Shown piece by piece: positions 2,243-49,521 of a stretch of DNA of 59,880 nucleotides (positions are counted from its first letter, which is position 1; each line of letters opens with the position of its first letter). The stretch comes from a virus. Its lineage: Duplodnaviria > Caudoviricetes. A program made the position numbers and the translations under genes. The notes below the pieces were generated by a model. That model was not told the DNA's origin and did no database searches. It saw only the letters and a list, made by a program, of their open reading frames with translations. The stretch spans positions 1-59,880 of IMG/VR virus record IMGVR_UViG_3300008266_000061, one strand, 5' to 3'.

Positions 2243-2470
2243 ATGCACTTTAACTTTTTCGCAGATATAGACCTAGCAAAGTCGGGAGAGTCACTACTAA
2301 CGGCTACAGGATTTCTGGCACTTGGGACGATGTTTGAGGGGATGGACTTGCAGCATATGCACATACCACCGATTATCCTTGAATTTGCCAAGTTGTGCGC
2401 CTACCTCGGAGCGGGGATGTCGTTCTTTAAGTTCATAGTCGGGCTGTTCATCAAACGCAAGGAGAAGTGA
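2243..2470 (+). CDS. Small two-TM membrane protein (possibly holin-like)
   Basis: Two hydrophobic segments, basic C-terminus; TATATTTG at 2226-2233 supports start at ATG 2243. Confidence 0.55.
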   Translation: MHFNFFADIDLAKSGESLLTATGFLALGTMFEGMDLQHMHIPPIILEFAKLCAYLGAGMSFFKFIVGLFIKRKEK

Positions 2471-2679
2471 TCCTGACTATTATCATATTATTTATCATCG
2501 CGTACTTCGTGTACGACACCTGGGCCGCAAGTAAGATTGTCCAGGAGAGCCAAAACCGTATCCTTGACAAGCTCAACAGCCTAATCGACGGCGTGAAGAC
2601 GTTCTTTACCGTTACCCTAGTGGAAAGGCTTTCGTCTCCCAAGGATACCGAGTCAGAAGACGACGACATCGAGCTATAG
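2467..2679 (+). CDS. Small protein with N-terminal membrane anchor
   Basis: GTGA overlap with the previous gene; hydrophobic N-terminus, acidic tail. Confidence 0.6.
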   Translation: MILTIIILFIIAYFVYDTWAASKIVQESQNRILDKLNSLIDGVKTFFTVTLVERLSSPKDTESEDDDIEL

Positions 2680-2723
2680 ACATTAGCAAGACACGGTTCC
2701 GTGCAGGGACCGTTGTAGTTGCG

Positions 2724-2753
2724 AAAAGGCCGGGGTGATAGCCGGCTTTTTTT
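2724..2753 (+). terminator. Intrinsic terminator, possibly bidirectional
   Basis: AAAAG-GCCGG-N8-CCGGC-T7 between convergent blocks. Confidence 0.7.
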
Positions 2754-3036
2754 ATAACTCGTAGCTATCCTCGCACCATATCGGCGTCTTTTCCCCCACG
2801 TAAGCACCGGCCACGTTGTACTGAAAGTGTTCGATGGCGTCCTCTGGGTCCATGCCCTCCACCTCGATGAGTATCTCAAGGCACTTCTTGCACGAATAGA
2901 TGAGGCGGGAAGACCCGTAGTCAACGCCAATTACAGCGTCGTCAAACCCGTCGGCGATAAGGAACTCGTCTTCCGGGTATAGTTCGACGAGGAGTTCGAG
3001 GTAGTTCTTGTATTCCTTTATGTTATTCGTGTCCAT
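2752..3036 (-). CDS. Conserved phage hypothetical protein
   Basis: ADGFDDAVIG...EDAIEHFQYNVAGAYVGEKTP motif; start taken at MDTNN. Confidence 0.75.
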   Translation of the reverse strand: MDTNNIKEYKNYLELLVELYPEDEFLIADGFDDAVIGVDYGSSRLIYSCKKCLEILIEVEGMDPEDAIEHFQYNVAGAYVGEKTPIWCEDSYEL

Positions 3037-3310
3037 TTTTCCAAATTTCTTTAGCGATTTCAATTAACTCATCATGGCTGTGAGAGACATACTCTCCCTT
3101 GACGCTGTCTCCCCACCACTTGCCGTCCTTTGGGGACTCAAGGTAGTAGATTACGTCCTTTTCCTCGGCGTCATAGCTCCACGAGGAGACCTTAGCCTTG
3201 TAGATTGCCAGGTGATCGGTTGGTTGGTTGTGGTCGTACCACATCGAGATGGCGTAGACCTCCGTGCCTGGCTCGTAGGCAAAGATTGTGTAGGTTGTTC
3301 TGCTTTTCAT
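3023..3310 (-). CDS. Hypothetical protein
   Basis: ORF track; start context AAACGAAATG. Confidence 0.7.
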   Translation of the reverse strand: MKSRTTYTIFAYEPGTEVYAISMWYDHNQPTDHLAIYKAKVSSWSYDAEEKDVIYYLESPKDGKWWGDSVKGEYVSHSHDELIEIAKEIWKNGHE

Positions 3311-3365
3311 TTCGTTTATTTCGTTTGTTTTTGTAACAAATCTGGTAAAATTTTGTTACAGTTAG

Positions 3366-3454
3366 TAGTCAGGACAGGAATCGAACCTGCATACAGGTAG
3401 GTTATGTACACTTACCGTTTGAAGAACCTTGCGATACCATTCCGCCACCTGACT
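3366..3454 (-). tRNA. tRNA-like gene with aberrant anticodon arm (identity undetermined)
   Basis: Acceptor AGTCAGG/CCTGACT, D-arm GCGGAATGGTATCGC, T-arm GCAGG-TTCGATT-CCTGT; stem AGGTT/AACCT encloses 21 nt starting CT-TCA-AA; no encoded CCA. Confidence 0.7.
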
Positions 3455-3482
3455 ATTGTCACAATTCTTCAAATATTTGTGA

Positions 3483-3710
3483 CTACATCTTCATAATCTT
3501 TTTCAGATACAGCGCAAGGTCAAGCGCCTCCTCGTAAGCGTGTTGCAGCCACTCTCTTGGGGTGAGGTCTTTGCGGTCCATCGTCTGTTTGTACTGCGAG
3601 AATCCTTTCTTCTCACGCATAAGCATATCCATGATTACCTCATTGAGTAGATCAGAGGCGTGTTTTATCGGCTTATTGTCGCTTGTATGTCCCATCGGTA
3701 GGTGTGCCAT
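3483..3710 (-). CDS. Conserved phage protein, possibly MazG-like all-alpha NTP pyrophosphatase
   Basis: KG..QY..TMDRKDL...WLQHAYEEALDLALYL with an EExxD motif. Confidence 0.55.
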   Translation of the reverse strand: MAHLPMGHTSDNKPIKHASDLLNEVIMDMLMREKKGFSQYKQTMDRKDLTPREWLQHAYEEALDLALYLKKIMKM

Positions 3711-3853
3711 TTGTTTTCTCTTCCCGTTAACTTGTCGAGCTTGTAGCAGTCGTTTAAGACCTTGGTCTTGGCCGAATCAGGACTCTTGGCTCGTGCCTTA
3801 GCGTTGTGGACGAGTTTGTCCCCATCCCAAACCGTTATTACGTAGTTATTCAT
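3665..3853 (-). CDS. Hypothetical protein
   Basis: ORF track; tiles with neighbours. Confidence 0.6.
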   Translation of the reverse strand: MNNYVITVWDGDKLVHNAKARAKSPDSAKTKVLNDCYKLDKLTGRENKWHTYRWDIQATISR

Positions 3854-4043
3854 GTATTCCGTATGTTGAGTTTACCCAAACCCTTACCTGACTGCTCTCA
3901 AAGTGCCTGATCTCCCCGCCCTTGAGCAAAACAACCGTTATCTCGTCGTTCTCATACATCCCGCCGGGCGTTATGTAGAGGATGTATCCGTCACCCAGGG
4001 GTGTTGTCACCGGTATCGGATGCGGAGCGAAGGTCGTCATCAC
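3846..4043 (-). CDS. Conserved phage hypothetical protein
   Basis: PIPVTTPLGDGY...ENDE.TVVL..GEIRHF motif; coupled to neighbours. Confidence 0.7.
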   Translation of the reverse strand: MMTTFAPHPIPVTTPLGDGYILYITPGGMYENDEITVVLLKGGEIRHFESSQVRVWVNSTYGIHE

Positions 4044-4200
4044 ACTTTTTCAATAACTGTTGGATTTCTTGCTGCCTCATCTTCTTTAGCGTCGATATGT
4101 TGGCCATCACCACCTCCATTATCCTTTCCCTCGTTTCTTGGTTGGCCGTCTGGAGCTGTTCCACTAGGTACTCCGTCAGCGCCTGCTTGGTTTTTTTCAT
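3991..4200 (-). CDS. Hypothetical helical protein overlapping the upstream gene
   Basis: Amphipathic translation; overlaps the low-complexity tail of 4040..4516. Confidence 0.5.
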   Translation of the reverse strand: MKKTKQALTEYLVEQLQTANQETRERIMEVVMANISTLKKMRQQEIQQLLKKCDDDLRSASDTGDNTPG

Positions 4201-4516
4201 CTATTTGTCGTTTTATGTCTGATATGCCCTGGTAAACTAACGCCCAATACTCCACGGGGAGGGTTGCCAGGTTTTTTAACGTCTCCTCCATCATCTGGAC
4301 CGCGTTGAGGTAAGAGTCCCCCTCCTGCACGTCCCCAAGCATCTTGAAGAGTGGCATCAACTCTTTTTCAAGCTTTGACACCAAGGTCTTAGAGTGCATC
4401 TTTAAGTCGTGCTTGAAGAACCCGAACTCAATACACTCGTCGTGGCATTGGGCATAGATCTGCTGTGCGGCTAATGCGGTAACAACTAACCGCGCTTTTG
4501 TTTCTCTTTCGTTCAT
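4040..4516 (-). CDS. Hypothetical protein
   Basis: Start moved to ATG 4516 downstream of minus-strand TATATTTG at 4532-4539. Confidence 0.7.
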   Translation of the reverse strand: MNERETKARLVVTALAAQQIYAQCHDECIEFGFFKHDLKMHSKTLVSKLEKELMPLFKMLGDVQEGDSYLNAVQMMEETLKNLATLPVEYWALVYQGISDIKRQIDEKNQAGADGVPSGTAPDGQPRNEGKDNGGGDGQHIDAKEDEAARNPTVIEKV

Positions 4517-4572
4517 TTCGTTTTGTTTGTGCAAATATACAACACGTAAGTGTGTTTGCAACAATTTTAACT

Positions 4573-4827
4573 TTAATTTGCGCTAAAAAGAAAGCTAACG
4601 TCGCTCATAATCATTTCGTCTACCTGCTCCATTGAGAGCCCGACAATAAAGTCGTCACCCCCAGAGCTAATCATGCATAAGTTCTTGTAGTTCTGATAGG
4701 GCCTCACGTTGTCTATCCGATAAAAGATGGCGGGTTCGCACTCATACCTATCCGGCGTAGAGCCAACCAGGTCCGCGATCTTCTTTTCGTCGGTGTCCAC
4801 CACTATTGGAAGAATAACTCTAAGCAT
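4573..4827 (-). CDS. Hypothetical protein
   Basis: ORF track; tiles with neighbours. Confidence 0.7.
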   Translation of the reverse strand: MLRVILPIVVDTDEKKIADLVGSTPDRYECEPAIFYRIDNVRPYQNYKNLCMISSGGDDFIVGLSMEQVDEMIMSDVSFLFSAN

Positions 4828-4828
4828 G

Positions 4829-5071
4829 TCAGTCCAAATTTACTCGCCTATAACCCAATGCCCATAAAAACTCGGAGATTTTTACCCCATACTCTTCAAC
4901 ATACGACTCGTCCCAATGCTTAAACTCGTGGTGTAAATACTCGTGAATCGCTACCTCTAAATGCTCCTTTGCCGGGAGCCGTGGATCAATCTCAATCAAG
5001 CCGTCGTCATGGTAAAGGCCCCTTGCCTTTTCCCTTCCGAGCTTTCTGTATTTGATTCTGAAGTTTTCCAT
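4829..5071 (-). CDS. Small HExxH zincin-like metallopeptidase (ImmA/IrrE-like fold)
   Basis: RGLY..DGLIEIDPRL...VAIHEYLH...E..VE pattern. Confidence 0.65.
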   Translation of the reverse strand: MENFRIKYRKLGREKARGLYHDDGLIEIDPRLPAKEHLEVAIHEYLHHEFKHWDESYVEEYGVKISEFLWALGYRRVNLD

Positions 5072-5150
5072 TACACGTCACGTTATGCAAAATACAGAAA
5101 AAAATGCACATCCTACGTAACAAAAACACGCATAAAAATGTTACGAGTGA

Positions 5151-6170
5151 TTACTTAATCTTGCCGTCAACAATTCGGTAGTTTGTAACCTCAAAGTCAT
5201 CATTATCAAACACTTTGACGTGTGCAAACCCGTGGGTAAACTTGTTGATTGGCATATAGTCGGGGTGCAGCTCGCAAAGACACGCTACCGACCAGCAGGT
5301 GGTAACCTTTCCGTTGATGTTTGGCTCGGTATGCTCCGATGTTTGGTGGTGGTGTCCGCAGATTGCGTTGTCTTTTGCTCTGAGATAAAGTCCACGAGCG
5401 ATGTTTACCGGGCTGAACATGCTTGACCCAAACTCGTGGCCGTGGAGGGCAACTAGCTTACCCATACGCACAAGCTGCTTGTCTGGGATGAACGTGATGT
5501 TCAGCTTGTCAAGGTGCATGATGGATTGCAGGGAAAACTCCTCGATTCCAACAAGGTCTGACGCGTTGTTGATCAGGTAGTGGTCCCATCGGATGTCGTG
5601 GTTTCCGGCCTTGAAGTATATTGCCTGTGTAGGGAACAATCGTCGCAGAGTGTAGAGGAAGTCCCTTGCCATGTAGATTTCTGACGCGAGGTCGCGCTTG
5701 CGCGGGTCCTTTTGGAATCGGCTGATTGCGTAGAAGTCAATGAGGTCCCCGTTAATGTAGATCGTGTTGACCTCATTTTCAAGACCGTACTTGAGTGCAG
5801 CTGTGAGTGCAGGGATGTTGTGATATGGTACGTGAATGTCGGTGAGAAAGAGTATATCATTGTGGTTGACTGGGAATTTATACGGATTGTACTGATTCTC
5901 CTTGGAGTCAGGAAGACCAAGCGGGTTCGCGTCTGGAGCCAGTTCGTTTACGATTTGCTCAAAGGCGTTCATGATTGCGTCTTGAGACCTCTTTATAGAC
6001 TTTTTGACCTTGGTTTTATTTCTTTTCTTCCAGTCATAAAATGCCCTTTTAAAAGATTCAAGCGTGGCACTGGTTCCCGCCTTGTCCCACTCCTCTTGAA
6101 TTTTTTGGTTTTGACTAATGTCTCGCGTGTCGTTTAAGATGTTGCGATAGTTTTGTACGCTATTTTTCAT
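5151..6170 (-). CDS. Calcineurin-like metallophosphoesterase with N-terminal extension
   Basis: Motifs DIH, GDLID, GNHD, HGH, GHHH; minus-strand TATATTTG at 6186-6193. Confidence 0.9.
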   Translation of the reverse strand: MKNSVQNYRNILNDTRDISQNQKIQEEWDKAGTSATLESFKRAFYDWKKRNKTKVKKSIKRSQDAIMNAFEQIVNELAPDANPLGLPDSKENQYNPYKFPVNHNDILFLTDIHVPYHNIPALTAALKYGLENEVNTIYINGDLIDFYAISRFQKDPRKRDLASEIYMARDFLYTLRRLFPTQAIYFKAGNHDIRWDHYLINNASDLVGIEEFSLQSIMHLDKLNITFIPDKQLVRMGKLVALHGHEFGSSMFSPVNIARGLYLRAKDNAICGHHHQTSEHTEPNINGKVTTCWSVACLCELHPDYMPINKFTHGFAHVKVFDNDDFEVTNYRIVDGKIK

Positions 6171-6205
6171 TTGGTTGATATATTGCAAATATAATCACTA
6201 CCCAC

Positions 6206-6235
6206 AAAAAAAACCGCCCCTTTTTAGAGGCGGTT
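6206..6235 (-). terminator. Intrinsic terminator
   Basis: AACCGCCTCT-AAAA-AGGGGCGGTT-T6; the G-U pair works only on the minus strand. Confidence 0.8.
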
Positions 6236-6286
6236 CACACAAACGAAATGAATAAAACAAACTGAACTTGCGCTACGAAACGCAAC
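6206..6286 (-). ncRNA. Putative ~80-nt antisense small RNA
   Basis: TACATTTG promoter element (6291-6298, minus), 5' hairpin (6268-6285), U-rich segment containing UUCAUUUCGUUU, intrinsic terminator; no ORF. Confidence 0.6.
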
Positions 6287-6501
6287 CCAGCAAATGTATC
6301 AACAAACTTTTTTAGTTCGTTCATTTTCTTTTGTTTACGATGACTTTACGCTCCATTTTGTAAAGTAGTTAGTTCCAAAATATAAAATGTGTCCGTGTCC
6401 TTTCGCCCGCCTGCATTATAAGCAGGGTTATCGGAACAAATATGTACATGTCGGTATATTCTAAGCCGTCACCCAGCGTAAACTTTTCGTATGTCACAGA
6501 C

Positions 6502-6807
6502 TCAATTATCTTCATCTAACAGTTTGAACTTTAGTTTGTCGTATTCCCCGACCGGGCGGACAACTTCAAGTTCTTTAAAGTGCCCACCGAGCCAAAGGTA
6601 CATATCGTTTCCTGTCAATTCATACAGTCGGATGTTTATCAACCTCATTAGCGACCGATCTCGCTTGTATTGCTTGTGAGGCTTGTGTGTACCCTTTTTG
6701 GGGCAGCTTACGTCGTCAGTTAGCAGCTTATGCCTCAGAGTCTGGAGGTGTTGCAACTCGGTCAACGTCGATGGCGTAGGTGGTAAGTATATCGGGGTTC
6801 CGTTCAT
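6502..6807 (-). CDS. Hypothetical protein
   Basis: ORF track; overlaps the upstream gene by 80 nt. Confidence 0.6.
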   Translation of the reverse strand: MNGTPIYLPPTPSTLTELQHLQTLRHKLLTDDVSCPKKGTHKPHKQYKRDRSLMRLINIRLYELTGNDMYLWLGGHFKELEVVRPVGEYDKLKFKLLDEDN

Positions 6808-7213
6808 TGAAAAAATCTAATAATAGTTCTTGTTTGGCTGGGTCTAAGTCTGCAATGAAGTGTCGTATCTTATTTCTACGAACCGCATTGAACTCATAGT
6901 CTCTCTTTAGAGTTTTAATAGCGTGGCATACGGTTGCGTGATCTTTATTGATTAACCGGGCAACCTCTGCTAAGGTTTTTGTCGTGCATACCTTGACTGT
7001 TGTCATAAACACCTGCCTAGCAAGGACGATGTCTGCAAGTCTTTTGTCACTCTTGATGTCGCTGGTAGCAACAATAAAGTGTTTGCTAACCTTTTGAAGA
7101 AGCTCGTCTCCATCGGCATCCTCCATCTTGTGAATGTACTCGTAAACCTTTGTGAAGTCGGCTCTCTTAGCTGGTGGAACCATGTCCACTAAATCTTTGA
7201 ATGTATATCTCAT
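6728..7213 (-). CDS. DnaA C-terminal (domain IV) DNA-binding domain protein
   Basis: IVLARQVFM...TLAEVARLINKDHATVCHA resembles the DnaA domain IV signature (RDHTTVxHA); no AAA+ domain. Confidence 0.8.
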   Translation of the reverse strand: MRYTFKDLVDMVPPAKRADFTKVYEYIHKMEDADGDELLQKVSKHFIVATSDIKSDKRLADIVLARQVFMTTVKVCTTKTLAEVARLINKDHATVCHAIKTLKRDYEFNAVRRNKIRHFIADLDPAKQELLLDFFNERNPDILTTYAIDVDRVATPPDSEA

Positions 7214-7232
7214 GTTCGTTTGTTTATAAAGC

Positions 7233-7267
7233 CGTGGCGGGTTAACCCTTATTAATCCCCCGCCACG
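7233..7267 (-). terminator. GC-rich hairpin after ssb (weak terminator or processing stem)
   Basis: CGTGGCGGG / CCCGCCACG arms; short U tract on minus strand. Confidence 0.5.
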
Positions 7268-7281
7268 ACTCTTGGTTAAGG

Positions 7282-7911
7282 TTAGAATGGCAAATCGTCT
7301 CCAGGATGCTCAACGTATTCGGTAGCGTGAGAGTCTAACTTTTTAATTGCACTTACTGACTTGACTTGCGGAAGGAAAATGTCATTAAGATGCTTCTCAA
7401 AGAACTCTTGACGCTCTGAGTCATCCCAAACAACTTGCCCTTTGACCTTTACCTGTTTCATCTCAGGCATATTACCGGGGTTGTCCTTTGTCCACGCCCA
7501 CTTGATGTCCTCTTGTCCTTGACGCAAGTAAAGCATTGTGCGCGTCTTGCCGTCGACCTCCTTTGACCACGGGGTAAGAGTAACCTCCTTCCCCGCATCA
7601 ATGTTAGGCATACACATAAAGAATCCTGATGAGTAACGTGAACTCCACGGCATTTGGATTTGATACTCGCTGTCTTGATCCTTCAGAACTATACAAAGCT
7701 GATCGCCGTAGCCCTGCTCGGAAACACGCTTGAATACGTCTGTGATGTAGCCTGAAAGCGACGTGTAACGCTCCTCGTACCAAATCTTAGTACCGTCTTT
7801 GCTCATGCACTTAATTGAGCCAGCTGTACCCTCAGGAACACGCTTGGCAATCTTACCGCCAGCAATGCTGAGGTAAGTACGGTTTGATGAACCACCTTGA
7901 TTTAATCCCAT
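7282..7911 (-). CDS. ssb: Probable single-stranded DNA-binding protein
   Basis: C-terminal DDLPF tail; next to primase-helicase; own promoter element at 7944-7951. Confidence 0.65.
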   Translation of the reverse strand: MGLNQGGSSNRTYLSIAGGKIAKRVPEGTAGSIKCMSKDGTKIWYEERYTSLSGYITDVFKRVSEQGYGDQLCIVLKDQDSEYQIQMPWSSRYSSGFFMCMPNIDAGKEVTLTPWSKEVDGKTRTMLYLRQGQEDIKWAWTKDNPGNMPEMKQVKVKGQVVWDDSERQEFFEKHLNDIFLPQVKSVSAIKKLDSHATEYVEHPGDDLPF

Positions 7912-7990
7912 AATTTTTGATTAATATTTATTGGTTATATTCGCAAATGTAGCATATATGTTTCTTTTGTGCAAGAAAAAAACTGTTAAA

Positions 7991-9931
7991 TTATTCCCAC
8001 GCTTCTTTGTAGCCGTTTGGATGATCAGTTTCCTCGTTCCATTCCTTGGCATCGCGTGAATCAGTCCAATTTCTGTTCGGCTTGATGACCGATGGCTTCG
8101 GTTCTTCAATTTGAGCCTGTACGTACTTGCCGTCAATCGCCTGTTGCAGGTAGTCAACCCCATCAAATGTAAACCTCCGAGTGTTCCTCTGTAGTTGGAA
8201 CTCAAAGAAGCCCTTTATACCCACGATTTTTTGTCGGCGGATCTTCTTACTATGAAACTCGCAGATAGGGCTTTCTGGGGCCGTCTGGGCAAACGGACGG
8301 TGGTATATGAGGATGTTGTCTGCCTTGTTGTTCCACATCGCTCCGTCGGCAAGGTCAAATACCTCCGGACATGGGTAGTTCCCGTCGTCCCCTTTCCTCA
8401 TCTTGTGCGGGTGGACCACTATGTCAAAGTACACGTTGTTTTTCCGTGCAAAACGAGTACAGTCAGACAAGAAAGTTTCCAAATACTTGTCACTTCTTCC
8501 GCCGCCCTTCGTATAGTCATTCGCCATTTGGTTGAATGGATCAATGATCACCCTTTCCACGCCATGTTTGATAATGAGACTCAAGAAAACTTCTTTAACG
8601 TAATCCGGTGTTGGGCTTACGTCTTTGGGGTATACCATGAAGATATGTTCGCCAATCATCTTGTACACCTTCATGTACAAATCGTAGCTTGGTCGATTTG
8701 GATTGTTTGGCGTACAGTCCTTTCCAAAATAGATTTCCACAAGGTCGTGGTAAAACTGTTCGGCAGGTAACTCCTCCGGGGTAAAGATGGCAACCTTCTC
8801 TCCAAACTTGACTATACGGAATATCATCTCCCACTTCATGAATGATGACTTGCCATAGTTTCCTATTCCGGAAACAATTGTTAAATCCCCCTTCACTCTT
8901 TTGAAGTGTTTGTCAAGTAGTGGAACGCCTAGAGGTTGTGCCGCACGATATCCGTGGAGGTAAATCTCGGAAGCCTTTTCCATAACTTCCTCCGCATAAA
9001 TGACGTCCTGTGCGGCTATATTCTCCGCATCTTCTGCGGTGATTACGATGTCAACCTCCACTCGGTTACTCTTTGTAACCAACTGGTCTTTGGTAAACTC
9101 GGCGGTGTTCCACTGGTTCATGTTGGCCCTGTACGCGCTACGTATCGCCTGTCTGCACTCACGTTGGCTGAAACTAGCGTCAGGAACAACGTAGGTCATC
9201 ATCATGTTATAGCACGTCTCCTCAAGCATCCCGAACCTGCAACAGCTTGCGGCTAACTTGAACACGAAGTGATTTCTTTCCCCCTCACGGAACGCGTCCC
9301 CCTTGGAGGTCATCCATGTCAGCAGGTTGTTAAAAATCTTGTCGTCGTCGTTAATCGTTTCGGTAGTTGTCTGTTGTGGCAACCTTCTGTCGGCCTTCTT
9401 TACTGGCAATTTGTTAAAAACCTCAGCGTTTGGATTGTAATAAATTTCGGGATCATACGACTCAAAGCATAGGCGGGAAACATTTCGACCAGTCTTGTCA
9501 ATGTCTGGGAAATCATTCATTAAGGCATCGAAATGCTCCTTATGCATGGTATTCCATTCAATCCGAACCAAGGCCTTCAGTCCCTTTCCAGAAGGTGATA
9601 CCCAAACAGCCGTAATGTAACTTATAAGTGACAATTCATTTCTTTTTTGGGTGATATTAGGGACATTATCGAAATCAAGCACAATGTAACCAGAGTGTTC
9701 GACAAGCTCTGAGTCCTTACGTTTGTTAAAAACCCCACTAAAGCAAGCTGCTGGAAGTCTCTTCTTTAACTCGTCCGCCTCCTTTTTGGTTTTAGCTTCC
9801 CTCGCCTTCTCGACGAGTTCCTTTGACTTTCCAGTCCTAATTCGTTCAAGTGCGCCCAACACAGTAATCGTGTGTCCTTGCAGGTCGTTGAAGTCTTTGT
9901 AGATTGAGATTTTACCATGTATTGCTGTCAT
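7991..9931 (-). CDS. Primase-helicase: BT4734/VirE_N-like primase domain, PriCT-like domain, DnaB/twinkle-type SF4 helicase
   Basis: HSGYIVLDFD...SPSGKGLK...DVSRLCF-like (NVSRLCFESYDP); GERN; Walker A GIGNYGKS; Walker B IIDP; VVHP; NKADN. Confidence 0.85.
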   Translation of the reverse strand: MTAIHGKISIYKDFNDLQGHTITVLGALERIRTGKSKELVEKAREAKTKKEADELKKRLPAACFSGVFNKRKDSELVEHSGYIVLDFDNVPNITQKRNELSLISYITAVWVSPSGKGLKALVRIEWNTMHKEHFDALMNDFPDIDKTGRNVSRLCFESYDPEIYYNPNAEVFNKLPVKKADRRLPQQTTTETINDDDKIFNNLLTWMTSKGDAFREGERNHFVFKLAASCCRFGMLEETCYNMMMTYVVPDASFSQRECRQAIRSAYRANMNQWNTAEFTKDQLVTKSNRVEVDIVITAEDAENIAAQDVIYAEEVMEKASEIYLHGYRAAQPLGVPLLDKHFKRVKGDLTIVSGIGNYGKSSFMKWEMIFRIVKFGEKVAIFTPEELPAEQFYHDLVEIYFGKDCTPNNPNRPSYDLYMKVYKMIGEHIFMVYPKDVSPTPDYVKEVFLSLIIKHGVERVIIDPFNQMANDYTKGGGRSDKYLETFLSDCTRFARKNNVYFDIVVHPHKMRKGDDGNYPCPEVFDLADGAMWNNKADNILIYHRPFAQTAPESPICEFHSKKIRRQKIVGIKGFFEFQLQRNTRRFTFDGVDYLQQAIDGKYVQAQIEEPKPSVIKPNRNWTDSRDAKEWNEETDHPNGYKEAWE

Positions 9932-10589
9932 CTTGAATAGGCGTTTGTTTTATTGCTTTCGTTTGTGTTTCGTCTTCCCATCTCTTGTCGCGAAGATATC
10001 GAACCGGGTCTTTCCAGTATTTCCGTTCGCGACCCGATTTGTGGTTATTCATGCATTCTACCGCAAGTGTGCGCTCATCAGAAGATAGTTTGTTCCAAGC
10101 AGTTTGTGCTTGTTTCTTATCCACCTTCTTGTCGTAAGCAGTCCAAAAATCCTCAAATGCGTATTTGTATATTATTATTTCTTTGTTTGTATTTGTTTCT
10201 TTATATATATCGAGGTTTTCCGATTCACGGAAATCCCCGACATCGGGAAATCCCGACATCGGGAAATCCGCATCTCGGGAAAGCTGAGGTGCATCATATA
10301 CAATATGGTTCCATCCCACCATCCTGTTGGTGCTTGAATCTATTTGACGGCAACTCAAGATGTACCCCTTCTCTTGCAGGGACTTAAACACCCTGTCTAC
10401 TGCGTTTTTTGCATCTGGCATCTGATTATAAAGATTCTTTTTGTAAAGAACCCAATTCTCCGGAAGGGAAAGAAGAAAGCAAAGCATACCTTTCTCTTCC
10501 ATTGTCAAATCCTTAGACTGTGAGATTTCGTTCGGGATAATAGCAAAGTCATGCTTGCGCTTCCCTTTAACAATTTGTCCTGTATTCAT
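9912..10589 (-). CDS. Phage replication initiator (N-terminal winged HTH)
   Basis: FAIIPNE...LTMEEKGMLCFLLSLPENW...LQEKGYI; C-terminal FEDFWTAY.KKVDK...YL..KRWED; internal iterons; start taken at MNTGQ. Confidence 0.8.
   Translation of the reverse strand: MNTGQIVKGKRKHDFAIIPNEISQSKDLTMEEKGMLCFLLSLPENWVLYKKNLYNQMPDAKNAVDRVFKSLQEKGYILSCRQIDSSTNRMVGWNHIVYDAPQLSRDADFPMSGFPDVGDFRESENLDIYKETNTNKEIIIYKYAFEDFWTAYDKKVDKKQAQTAWNKLSSDERTLAVECMNNHKSGRERKYWKDPVRYLRDKRWEDETQTKAIKQTPIQDDSNTW
10229..10284. repeat. 16-bp iteron-like repeats (three and a half copies) beside an AT-rich tract; putative origin
   Basis: GGAAATCCCCGACATC / GGGAAATCCCGACATC / GGGAAATCCGCATCTC / GGGAAAGC; AT-rich tract about 10161-10210. 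Confidence 0.75.
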
Positions 10590-10594
10590 AAGAT

Positions 10595-10712
10595 AAAAAA
10601 AGCTCGCAAGAACCACTTTGCGAGCTTTTGAATTGGTAAGTAATTATACCCATCCAACCCTAGTTTACTGTGGTTCGTTAGCAAACGAGGGGTGAAATAT
10701 GTGGCAAACATA
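10595..10712 (-). promoter_or_regulatory. Structured leader / attenuator of the initiator gene
   Basis: TATGTTTG at 10705-10712; hairpin 10658-10691; terminator hairpin plus U tract 10595-10629 just before ATG 10589. Confidence 0.7.
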
Positions 10713-49335: not shown

Positions 49336-49367
49336 TCCTAAAGAATCTTCCCGATTGTACCTTCTAT

Positions 49368-49446
49368 AAAACACAGAGGGCGGTGATCAGCCCGCCCTCA
49401 AAGTTCTCGTCTCCCGACTGCACTCATTTCGAATGCGCGAACTTGC
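49368..49446 (-). ncRNA. Putative short RNA (leftward)
   Basis: Minus TATATTTG 49451-49458 with TTTG 19 bp upstream; stem GAGGGCGG/CCGCCCTC (49376-49399) followed by TGTGTTTT. Confidence 0.4.
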
Positions 49447-49521
49447 ACTGCAAATATATGACATTTATTATTTAATGCAAAATAATTTGCATTATGCAAC
49501 TTGTGCATATAACTTTGCCCC

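Follow-up and report, generated by a model that had tools for sequence, protein, structure and literature searches.

A probable small-RNA gene in a Caudoviricetes virus and its relatives, with a seed predicted to pair with the virus's own early start sites

In Bacteroides thetaiotaomicron, messenger RNAs (mRNAs) that lack a Shine-Dalgarno sequence are repressed by GibS, which is described in PMC7366714 as a small RNA whose conserved single-stranded seed pairs across the start codon. Here, a phage-borne element of comparable design was characterized. It lies on the minus strand, upstream of a metallophosphoesterase gene, in a stretch of 59.9 kilobases (kb) that is referred to below as the window (positions 1 to 59,880 of IMG/VR virus record IMGVR_UViG_3300008266_000061, Duplodnaviria, Caudoviricetes; completeness estimate 91%). 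The element is likely a genuine RNA gene. The conserved RNA would form a new family of phage small RNAs, of a kind already known; anti-start-codon control of phage genes is plausible.

GibS and the other trans-encoded small RNAs of B. thetaiotaomicron share with the window RNA the Bacteroidota setting, a TAnnTTTG promoter, the absence of Shine-Dalgarno sequences and a seed that spans start codons. GibS differs in being chromosomal and in carrying an extended seed at its 5' end, whereas the window RNA belongs to a phage, has its seed between two hairpins and has predicted targets in the phage itself. There is no sequence relation to the B. thetaiotaomicron RNAs, the best Rfam match, BTnc201, reaching about 21 bits where the gathering score is 105.

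Among phage RNAs, c4 is an RNA of about 80 nucleotides (nt) that blocks translation of downstream genes through complementary sites in its own transcripts. It is cut out of the transcript that also carries its targets, and it controls immunity of temperate enterobacterial phages. The c4 RNA of P1 and P7 is alike in size and in acting on complementary sites at other places in phage transcripts, and differs from the window RNA, which has its own promoter box, another host phylum and several separate predicted target genes. The sar RNA of P22 and the OOP RNA of lambda are cis-encoded, being transcribed opposite a single target to which they are fully complementary, and they mask the start region or destabilise the phage mRNA. 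In contrast, the window RNA and its predicted targets share a strand and are 1.7-3.7 kb apart, with complementarity of 12-26 nt. RegA of T4 is a protein that stops the translation of several early mRNAs by recognising a short sequence over their AUG; the mode is similar, with the difference that the predicted recogniser is here an RNA. The RNAs c4 (P1, P7), sar (P22) and OOP (lambda) are named in a 2025 review of phage small RNAs (PMC12197685), the main text of which mentions neither 'Bacteroid' nor 'Flavobacter'. Searches of the literature found no small RNA described for a Bacteroidota phage; the supplementary tables of PMC12197685 and PMC7366714, outside this search, might list some.

The elements of the unit are as follows.

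6286-6206, minus strand: probable RNA gene of about 80 nt, with hairpin, unpaired stretch and terminator
6298-6291, minus strand: putative promoter -7 box TACATTTG of the Bacteroidota TAnnTTTG type (sequence match)
6285-6268, minus strand: 5' hairpin of 7 base pairs (bp) with a 4-nt loop (hairpin scan and fold)
6267-6237, minus strand: unpaired U/G-rich seed of about 31 nt (fold)
6262-6254, minus strand: first seed half, GUUUGUUUU
6252-6241, minus strand: second seed half, UUCAUUUCGUUU, with the anti-AUG CAU
6236-6211 (stem), with the U run to about 6204, minus strand: intrinsic terminator of 11 pairs (6 G-C) with a 4-nt loop (scan)
6193-6186, minus strand: second promoter box TATATTTG, for the metallophosphoesterase gene, 15 nt from its ATG
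6299-6350, minus strand: conserved block upstream of the promoter box, identity 0.86-0.90 to relatives, in which it contains the final codons of a membrane-protein gene

The minus-strand box, 7-bp hairpin, U-rich stretch and intrinsic terminator of an approximately 80-nt unit, as an earlier note on this DNA had described them, were all recovered in place. Transcription would start near 6286. The TACATTTG box was invariant in 24/24 aligned sequences, and its extended form, TAYATTTGC, is the same as that of boxes located 7-32 nt upstream of other gene starts (4516, 6170, 7911, 15707, 49150 and 49620). A putative promoter of its own and a Rho-independent terminator bound a short unit without a conserved open reading frame (ORF), which is the general pattern of small-RNA genes. 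The metallophosphoesterase gene has the separate TATATTTG box, and therefore the RNA unit is not simply the leader of that gene. Folding of the 85-nt RNA gave -25.9 kcal/mol (z = -3.6), and 0/200 shuffled sequences folded as well.

A reading of the unit as an attenuator was rejected, as the fold shows no alternative pairing between the seed and a terminator arm. The complementarity GUUCA/UGAAC, noticed by eye in the window, is absent where relatives have AAAAC instead.

With the metallophosphoesterase gene as bait, 66 related viral loci were obtained, 37 of them with a homologous upstream region; these correspond to 29 distinct sequences, the window counted. A covariance model built from 24 sequences matched 42 sources exactly once each (E <= 1e-7), 23 of the copies being distinct. 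In the model alignment of these 23 rows, 97.2% of the pair cells were standard pairs, 8/17 pairs had changed on both sides, and none of five structure measures was reached by any of 500 shuffles, slid partners pairing in 39-55%. Since the alignment used for these counts is fitted to the covariance model, each distinct sequence was also folded alone: all 23 homologues showed the 5' hairpin, 27-31 unpaired nt and the terminator, with predicted mean unpaired probabilities of 0.95 and 0.90 for the two seed halves. Both-side changes were found in 6/7 pairs of the 5' hairpin among the 23 distinct relatives. In the terminator, 99.6% of the cells were paired and 2 pairs had changed on both sides. A raw alignment analysed by MAFFT and RNAalifold missed the 5' hairpin because of loop-length differences, and the model-based alignment was used instead.

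The model was also searched in 30 whole records from relatives at a greater distance, which yielded six further copies (L178-L183). Their layout was the same, with the hairpins GGCAGC/GCUGUC, AGGUGUU/AACACCU and UGCGCCA/UGGCGCA and with different seeds. L179-L183 were not recruited to the structural alignment at E <= 0.001 in the larger search space and were folded singly. The hairpin is retained in L041, L179, L181 and L182 despite an entirely different stem sequence. Across clades, the scaffold is constant and the seed variable, the seed types being those of the window, L041, L178, L179 and L182. The seed element retained most widely, GUUUGUUUU, is complementary to an A/C-rich leader of generic type. 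The RNA of L187 (G020) has the L178-type seed, and its CAUUUCGUU match elsewhere in 20 kb is at chance level.

A search of Rfam 15 in E-value mode (positions 5500-7000, E <= 10) returned only six chance-level rows, all below the gathering score; the best were BTnc201 (21.1 bits/105), GcvB (19.8/42) and SpF41 (20.8/52). At the gathering threshold, Rfam found only a transfer RNA (tRNA) in the whole window.

Over 1.4 kb, the unpaired stretch is the peak of identity with the relatives (0.98 at 6270-6251 and 0.92 at 6250-6231), the adjacent coding sequence ranging from 0.34 to 0.94. The earlier note had named loss of the seed where promoter and terminator persist as grounds against its reading; since conservation peaks in the unpaired stretch, this objection does not apply. 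In the relatives, a membrane-protein gene of 85-112 codons, ending in ..KVIVIKRK before its stop, immediately precedes the RNA. Of this gene, the window retains only the last 11 codons, yet it has the entire RNA unit. Upstream of 6350, the window and its relatives are unrelated (about 0.3 identity), the homology beginning about 55 nt before the box. A self-contained transcription unit is favoured over the 3' end of the upstream gene or a leader because of the conservation peak, the loss of the upstream gene and the second promoter box. The window sequence at 6351-6870 (minus strand) is unrelated to that of the relatives, with a mosaic boundary at about 6350.

Within the window, the exact sequence AAACGAAATGAA occurs at three sites, 3306-3317 (minus), 4512-4523 (minus) and 6241-6252 (plus), the last being the complement of UUCAUUUCGUUU. 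With at most one mismatch, 6 matches were found against 0.48 expected, and 0/100 shuffles reached 6. Three predicted targets were defined.

4512-4523, minus strand: predicted target 1, AAACGAAAUGAA over the AUG of an ORF of 158 amino acids (aa) at 4040-4516
3306-3328, minus strand: predicted target 2, tandem ACAAACGAAAU and AAACGAAAUGAA over the AUG of a 95-aa ORF at 3023-3310
9943-9968, minus strand: predicted target 3, leader of the primase/helicase gene, 24/26 complementary to 6237-6262

The first two confirm the earlier note, which had reported an exact 12-nt complement over the AUG of two minus-strand genes; both ATGs start ORFs. The primase leader is absent from that note and is the strongest match to the seed. 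Its site lies 12-37 nt upstream of the AUG at 9931, within the 3' end of the replication-initiator gene, and contains two exact 12-mers. Exact matches of at least 12 nt to the complement of the seed number four (3306-3317, 4512-4523, 9943-9954 and 9957-9968), all on the minus strand and in mRNA sense, and each falls in the leader or at the start site of an early gene. For shuffled seeds, the mean number of such matches was 0.33 and the maximum 3.

Pairing was evaluated by cofolding the full-length RNA with segments from -45 to +20, the cost of opening the structure of each partner being charged. The primase leader (-30.2 kcal/mol), the 95-aa gene (-21.2 kcal/mol) and the 158-aa gene (-20.3 kcal/mol) ranked 1, 2 and 3 of 63 start regions, respectively. 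The predicted pairing is better than that of shuffled U-rich controls: 0/83 shuffled seeds reached the real best, top-3 or top-5 cofold energies, and 0/300 reached four exact matches of at least 12 nt. The seed alone was also evaluated by duplexfold against the 63 start regions (-35 to +15) with 500 dinucleotide shuffles, and its best energy was -24.6 kcal/mol. Related contexts proposed for the starts at 7213, 20730 and 49620 are present but weaker, with AAACGA followed by 1-2 nt and ATG; by seed-alone energy they ranked 9th, 6th and 7th of the 63, respectively.

The promoter box of the 158-aa gene (4539-4532) ends 9 nt before the motif, and therefore the RNA would cover nearly the whole leader and the AUG. 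Neither the 158-aa nor the 95-aa protein has a Pfam or PHROG family; in a protein atlas, the former gave no usable result and the latter matched unnamed viral clusters only. The 95-aa gene has a tandem duplication in its leader at 3306-3326 (minus strand), AAACGAAAT AAACGAAAT GAA, which offers two overlapping pairing registers and is present in several relatives too. Directly upstream of this gene, at 3365-3454 (minus strand), lies a tRNA-Glu (ttc; ARAGORN; 48.4 bits with the Rfam tRNA model). At 90 nt it is unusually long for a tRNA-Glu, and in several relatives the motif directly follows the 3' end of the tRNA.

Regarded as DNA, 6237-6262 and 9943-9968 form a 26-nt inverted repeat (24/26) enclosing the primase, p209 and DnaA-C-like genes. 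As one of its arms falls within the 3' end of the replication-initiator gene, the repeat may have a role at the DNA level, for example at the origin.

In all fetched loci, the 9-mer AACGAAATG was found in 67 distinct contexts, of which 44 were the ATG of an ORF of at least 40 codons, 17 were the RNA gene itself read in antisense and 6 were other; one of these 6 is the start of a gene truncated at the locus end. The proteins that start on AAACGAAATGAA (at most one mismatch) belong to eight families, four of them with more than one member and unrelated to each other:

158-aa family on the 12-mer: 26 distinct proteins, 53 loci
95-aa family on the 12-mer: 14 distinct proteins, 30 loci
40-aa membrane peptide family on the 12-mer: 4 distinct proteins, 5 loci
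DnaA-C-like protein family on the 12-mer: 2 distinct proteins, 5 loci

The 12-mer is constant while its flanks vary widely, above all in the 95-aa family, in which the motif is exact in 10/17 distinct start regions with differing upstream flanks. Within the clade, the 158-aa family has the motif (0-2 mismatches) in 19/20 distinct start regions, 13 of them exact. In clades with other seeds (L041 type, G015, G019 and G020), the 158-aa homologues are without the motif in 4/4. An exact complement of at least 9 nt to the first seed half is present in the primase leader in 25/27 distinct pairs of RNA and leader. In G019, with the seed ..UUUUCAUUGUUCAUUG.., the best complement, 13 nt long, again lies on an ATG, that of a 112-codon ORF, and a further 10-mer complement lies on the start of a 49-codon ORF; the count of 10-mers was matched by 3/200 shuffles.

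Several observations weigh against the RNA acting on the phage's own start sites. Shorter matches in the window are not enriched: 8 of at least 10 nt were found against 5.1 expected (48/300 shuffles as high), and 23 of at least 9 nt against 17.7. With the seed alone, shuffles reached the best energy in 6/500 cases, the top-3 mean in 4/500 and the top-5 mean in 17/500. Within the clade, the motif is missing in 4/17 start regions of the 95-aa family and in 1/20 of the 158-aa family. The primase leader site is low-complexity A/C-rich coding sequence, and its 24/26 match is confined to the subclade of the window, 7-12 nt remaining elsewhere. On joint change of seed and target in related phages, a check named in the earlier note, the picture is mixed. 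Between clades, the motif is absent where the seed differs, and G019 combines a new seed with a new start-site match. There is no compensatory change within the clade, because the cores of seed and target are both invariant, and among clade relatives the seed variants are answered neither in the start sites nor in the primase leader. These variants are AAUCAU (L002, L004, L006, L007, L026 and L064), a 1-nt deletion (L001, L003, L005 and L036), a 1-nt insertion (L031, L033 and L034) and a U>C change (L035). In G019, the genes bearing complements are not orthologues of the window's targets, the 158-aa gene included. The cross-clade pattern of motif and seed may represent a single or very few evolutionary events. 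Complementarity is weak in G015, G020 and G027, and it is at chance level in two complete genomes, G031 (0 12-mers; 7 10-mers against 5.0 expected) and G028 (4 10-mers against 5.1 expected). Antisense to phage start codons is therefore not a property of the whole RNA family. An accessible, conserved seed with above-chance complementarity was found for the window's clade but not for G031 and G028. Of the trans-acting anti-start-codon RNA proposed in the earlier note, the conserved, structured non-coding unit, its seed and its complementarity to own starts stand, the complementarity not extending to these two other clades.

G031 (L191-L194; 68.5 kb) is classed as linear and carries the primase leader region at 1595 and at 67187 on the RNA-sense strand. 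The presence of this region at both ends seems to indicate a terminal repeat or circular permutation.

From these data, the following mechanism is proposed. The RNA would be transcribed from its own TAnnTTTG promoter within the early/replication module and ended by the intrinsic terminator. In the window and its close relatives, the seed would then pair with a small set of early mRNAs of the phage itself, at their AUGs and at their leaders, which are short, A/C-rich and devoid of Shine-Dalgarno sequences. The mRNAs of the 158-aa and 95-aa ORFans would be bound through UUCAUUUCGUUU against AAACGAAAUGAA, and the primase/helicase leader through both seed halves. Once the RNA has accumulated, this pairing would deny the 30S subunit access to the start site and so shut the target genes off. 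We infer transcription, the exact 5' end, pairing in the cell and the repressive effect from sequence. That the RNA acts by masking early start sites of its own phage is, in our estimate, about evenly balanced. A wider proposal is more tentative and, although possible, we regard it as doubtful: that Flavobacteriia-type phages share a family of anti-start-site riboregulators, with a fixed scaffold beside the metallophosphoesterase gene and a seed rewritten in each clade, which would shut off a regulon of early genes including the primase by covering each whole leader and its AUG, as an RNA counterpart of T4 RegA, and in some clades might address host mRNAs instead.

The main partners of a real small RNA could also lie elsewhere, either in A-rich, Shine-Dalgarno-less leaders of host mRNAs or in a host RNA-binding protein that is bound or titrated, in which case the matches in the phage would be secondary or clade-specific. 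Retention of the scaffold across clades while the seed differs would suit this explanation, as would the lack of above-chance complements in the genomes of G031 and G028 and the generic A/C-rich leader that is complementary to the most widely retained element, GUUUGUUUU. In the window's clade, however, exact 12-mers are found only on the phage's own early leaders, and four phage gene families that are unrelated to each other retain the motif; the seed pattern had 0 matches in one genome from each of 185,579 species. Host partners were on balance judged unlikely. Still lower is our estimate for an element acting in cis or as DNA, in which the unit would be the 3' end and terminator of the upstream operon together with promoter-proximal DNA, and the U-rich stretch and AAACGAAATGAA would be DNA or RNA operators bound by a phage protein (a repressor or translational repressor) or short boundaries favouring module exchange. 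The motif does stand 9-20 nt after promoter-like boxes (4539-4532 and about 3340), the classical position of an operator, the 26-nt inverted near-repeat flanks the replication genes and lies within the replication-initiator gene, and the gene order upstream of 6350 is mosaic. Against this, the pairing of hairpin 1 survives both-side changes and full replacement of its sequence, which points to selection on RNA structure. The register of motif and start codon is fixed in 44/50 contexts outside the RNA gene, a regularity that a DNA operator does not need; the unit persists in the window despite the loss of the upstream gene; and the homologue folds show no conserved alternative anti-terminator pairing.

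The unit had also been described as free of ORFs. This holds in the sense that the relatives show no conserved protein, but not literally, since one small ORF overlaps it:

6324-6235, minus strand: 29-codon ORF that starts upstream of the promoter box and covers the unit's first ~50 nt

The unit is very improbable as the gene of a small hydrophobic protein (29-54 aa) whose translation is coupled to that of the upstream gene by an overlapping ATGA. The ORF from 6324 is open in 29/29 distinct relatives (lengths 29-54 codons; start ATG, or GTG in 5/29), in the relatives the TGA of the membrane-protein gene overlaps its ATG, and the seed is read in the same frame in 25/29. Its openness says little, however, because the stretch is rich in T and all three of its frames lack a stop. 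The middle 12 codons are read in two frames (..FVDTFA.. in 11/29 and ..LLIHLL.. in 18/29), 4/29 relatives shift frame at the seed, and the length varies. Residues 2-3 are the least conserved, whereas the seed, at 0.98 identity, is nearly without third-position variation. In the distant copies, L041 included, T-rich frames are open, none of which is common with the window, and L182 and L183 differ from each other. Conservation of frame and amino acids, as for a small hydrophobic protein or type I toxin-like peptide, was not found among the relatives.

If the RNA is made and masks start sites as predicted, the unit would offer a compact, testable case of translation control on Shine-Dalgarno-less leaders, a phage timing switch made of RNA and a natural, re-programmable gene-silencing scaffold for Flavobacteria and Bacteroides. 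By their shared 12-nt motif, function-unassigned phage genes (158 aa, 95 aa, 40 aa and DnaA-C-like) are grouped into a small regulon, which merits joint study.

The genes surrounding the unit are as follows.

~2,400 to 10,600, minus strand: early/replication module (Pfam and PHROG matches)
9912-10616, minus strand: replication-initiator gene
7991-9931, minus strand: primase/helicase gene with a BT4734-like N domain
6728-7213, minus strand: gene of a DnaA-C-like helix-turn-helix protein
5151-6170, minus strand: metallophosphoesterase gene (Pfam and PHROG matches)

The early module also holds several small function-unassigned genes on the minus strand. When the primase was compared by tblastn with isolated phages, 185 records with 22-38% identity were obtained, of which 162 were phages of Flavobacterium, 7 of Cellulophaga and 4 of Nonlabens. 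No match was found by a DNA search against isolated phages, no close relative of the primase was found in bacterial genomes, and the seed pattern was also without a match in bacterial genomes, one per species being searched. Four runs labelled RNA-Seq (contigs, flagged as probably DNA) carry only DNA of relatives over 5400-7200. TAnnTTTG is the -7 element of the primary sigma factor of Bacteroidota according to PMC7366714. The window contains 61 such boxes against 38 +/- 6 in shuffles, and about 14 are intergenic and directly upstream of genes, mostly in the form TAYATTTGC. A Flavobacteriia-type host is a reasonable assumption because of the primase matches and these boxes, and the phage probably infects Flavobacterium-like bacteria.

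A second ORF-less unit of box and terminator is located at 49365-49458 (minus strand), on the strand opposite the late genes. It consists of TATATTTG, about 60 nt and a G+C-rich hairpin with a U-rich tail. The predicted transcript contains CGAAAUGA, an 8-nt copy of the motif, and therefore could pair with the seed.

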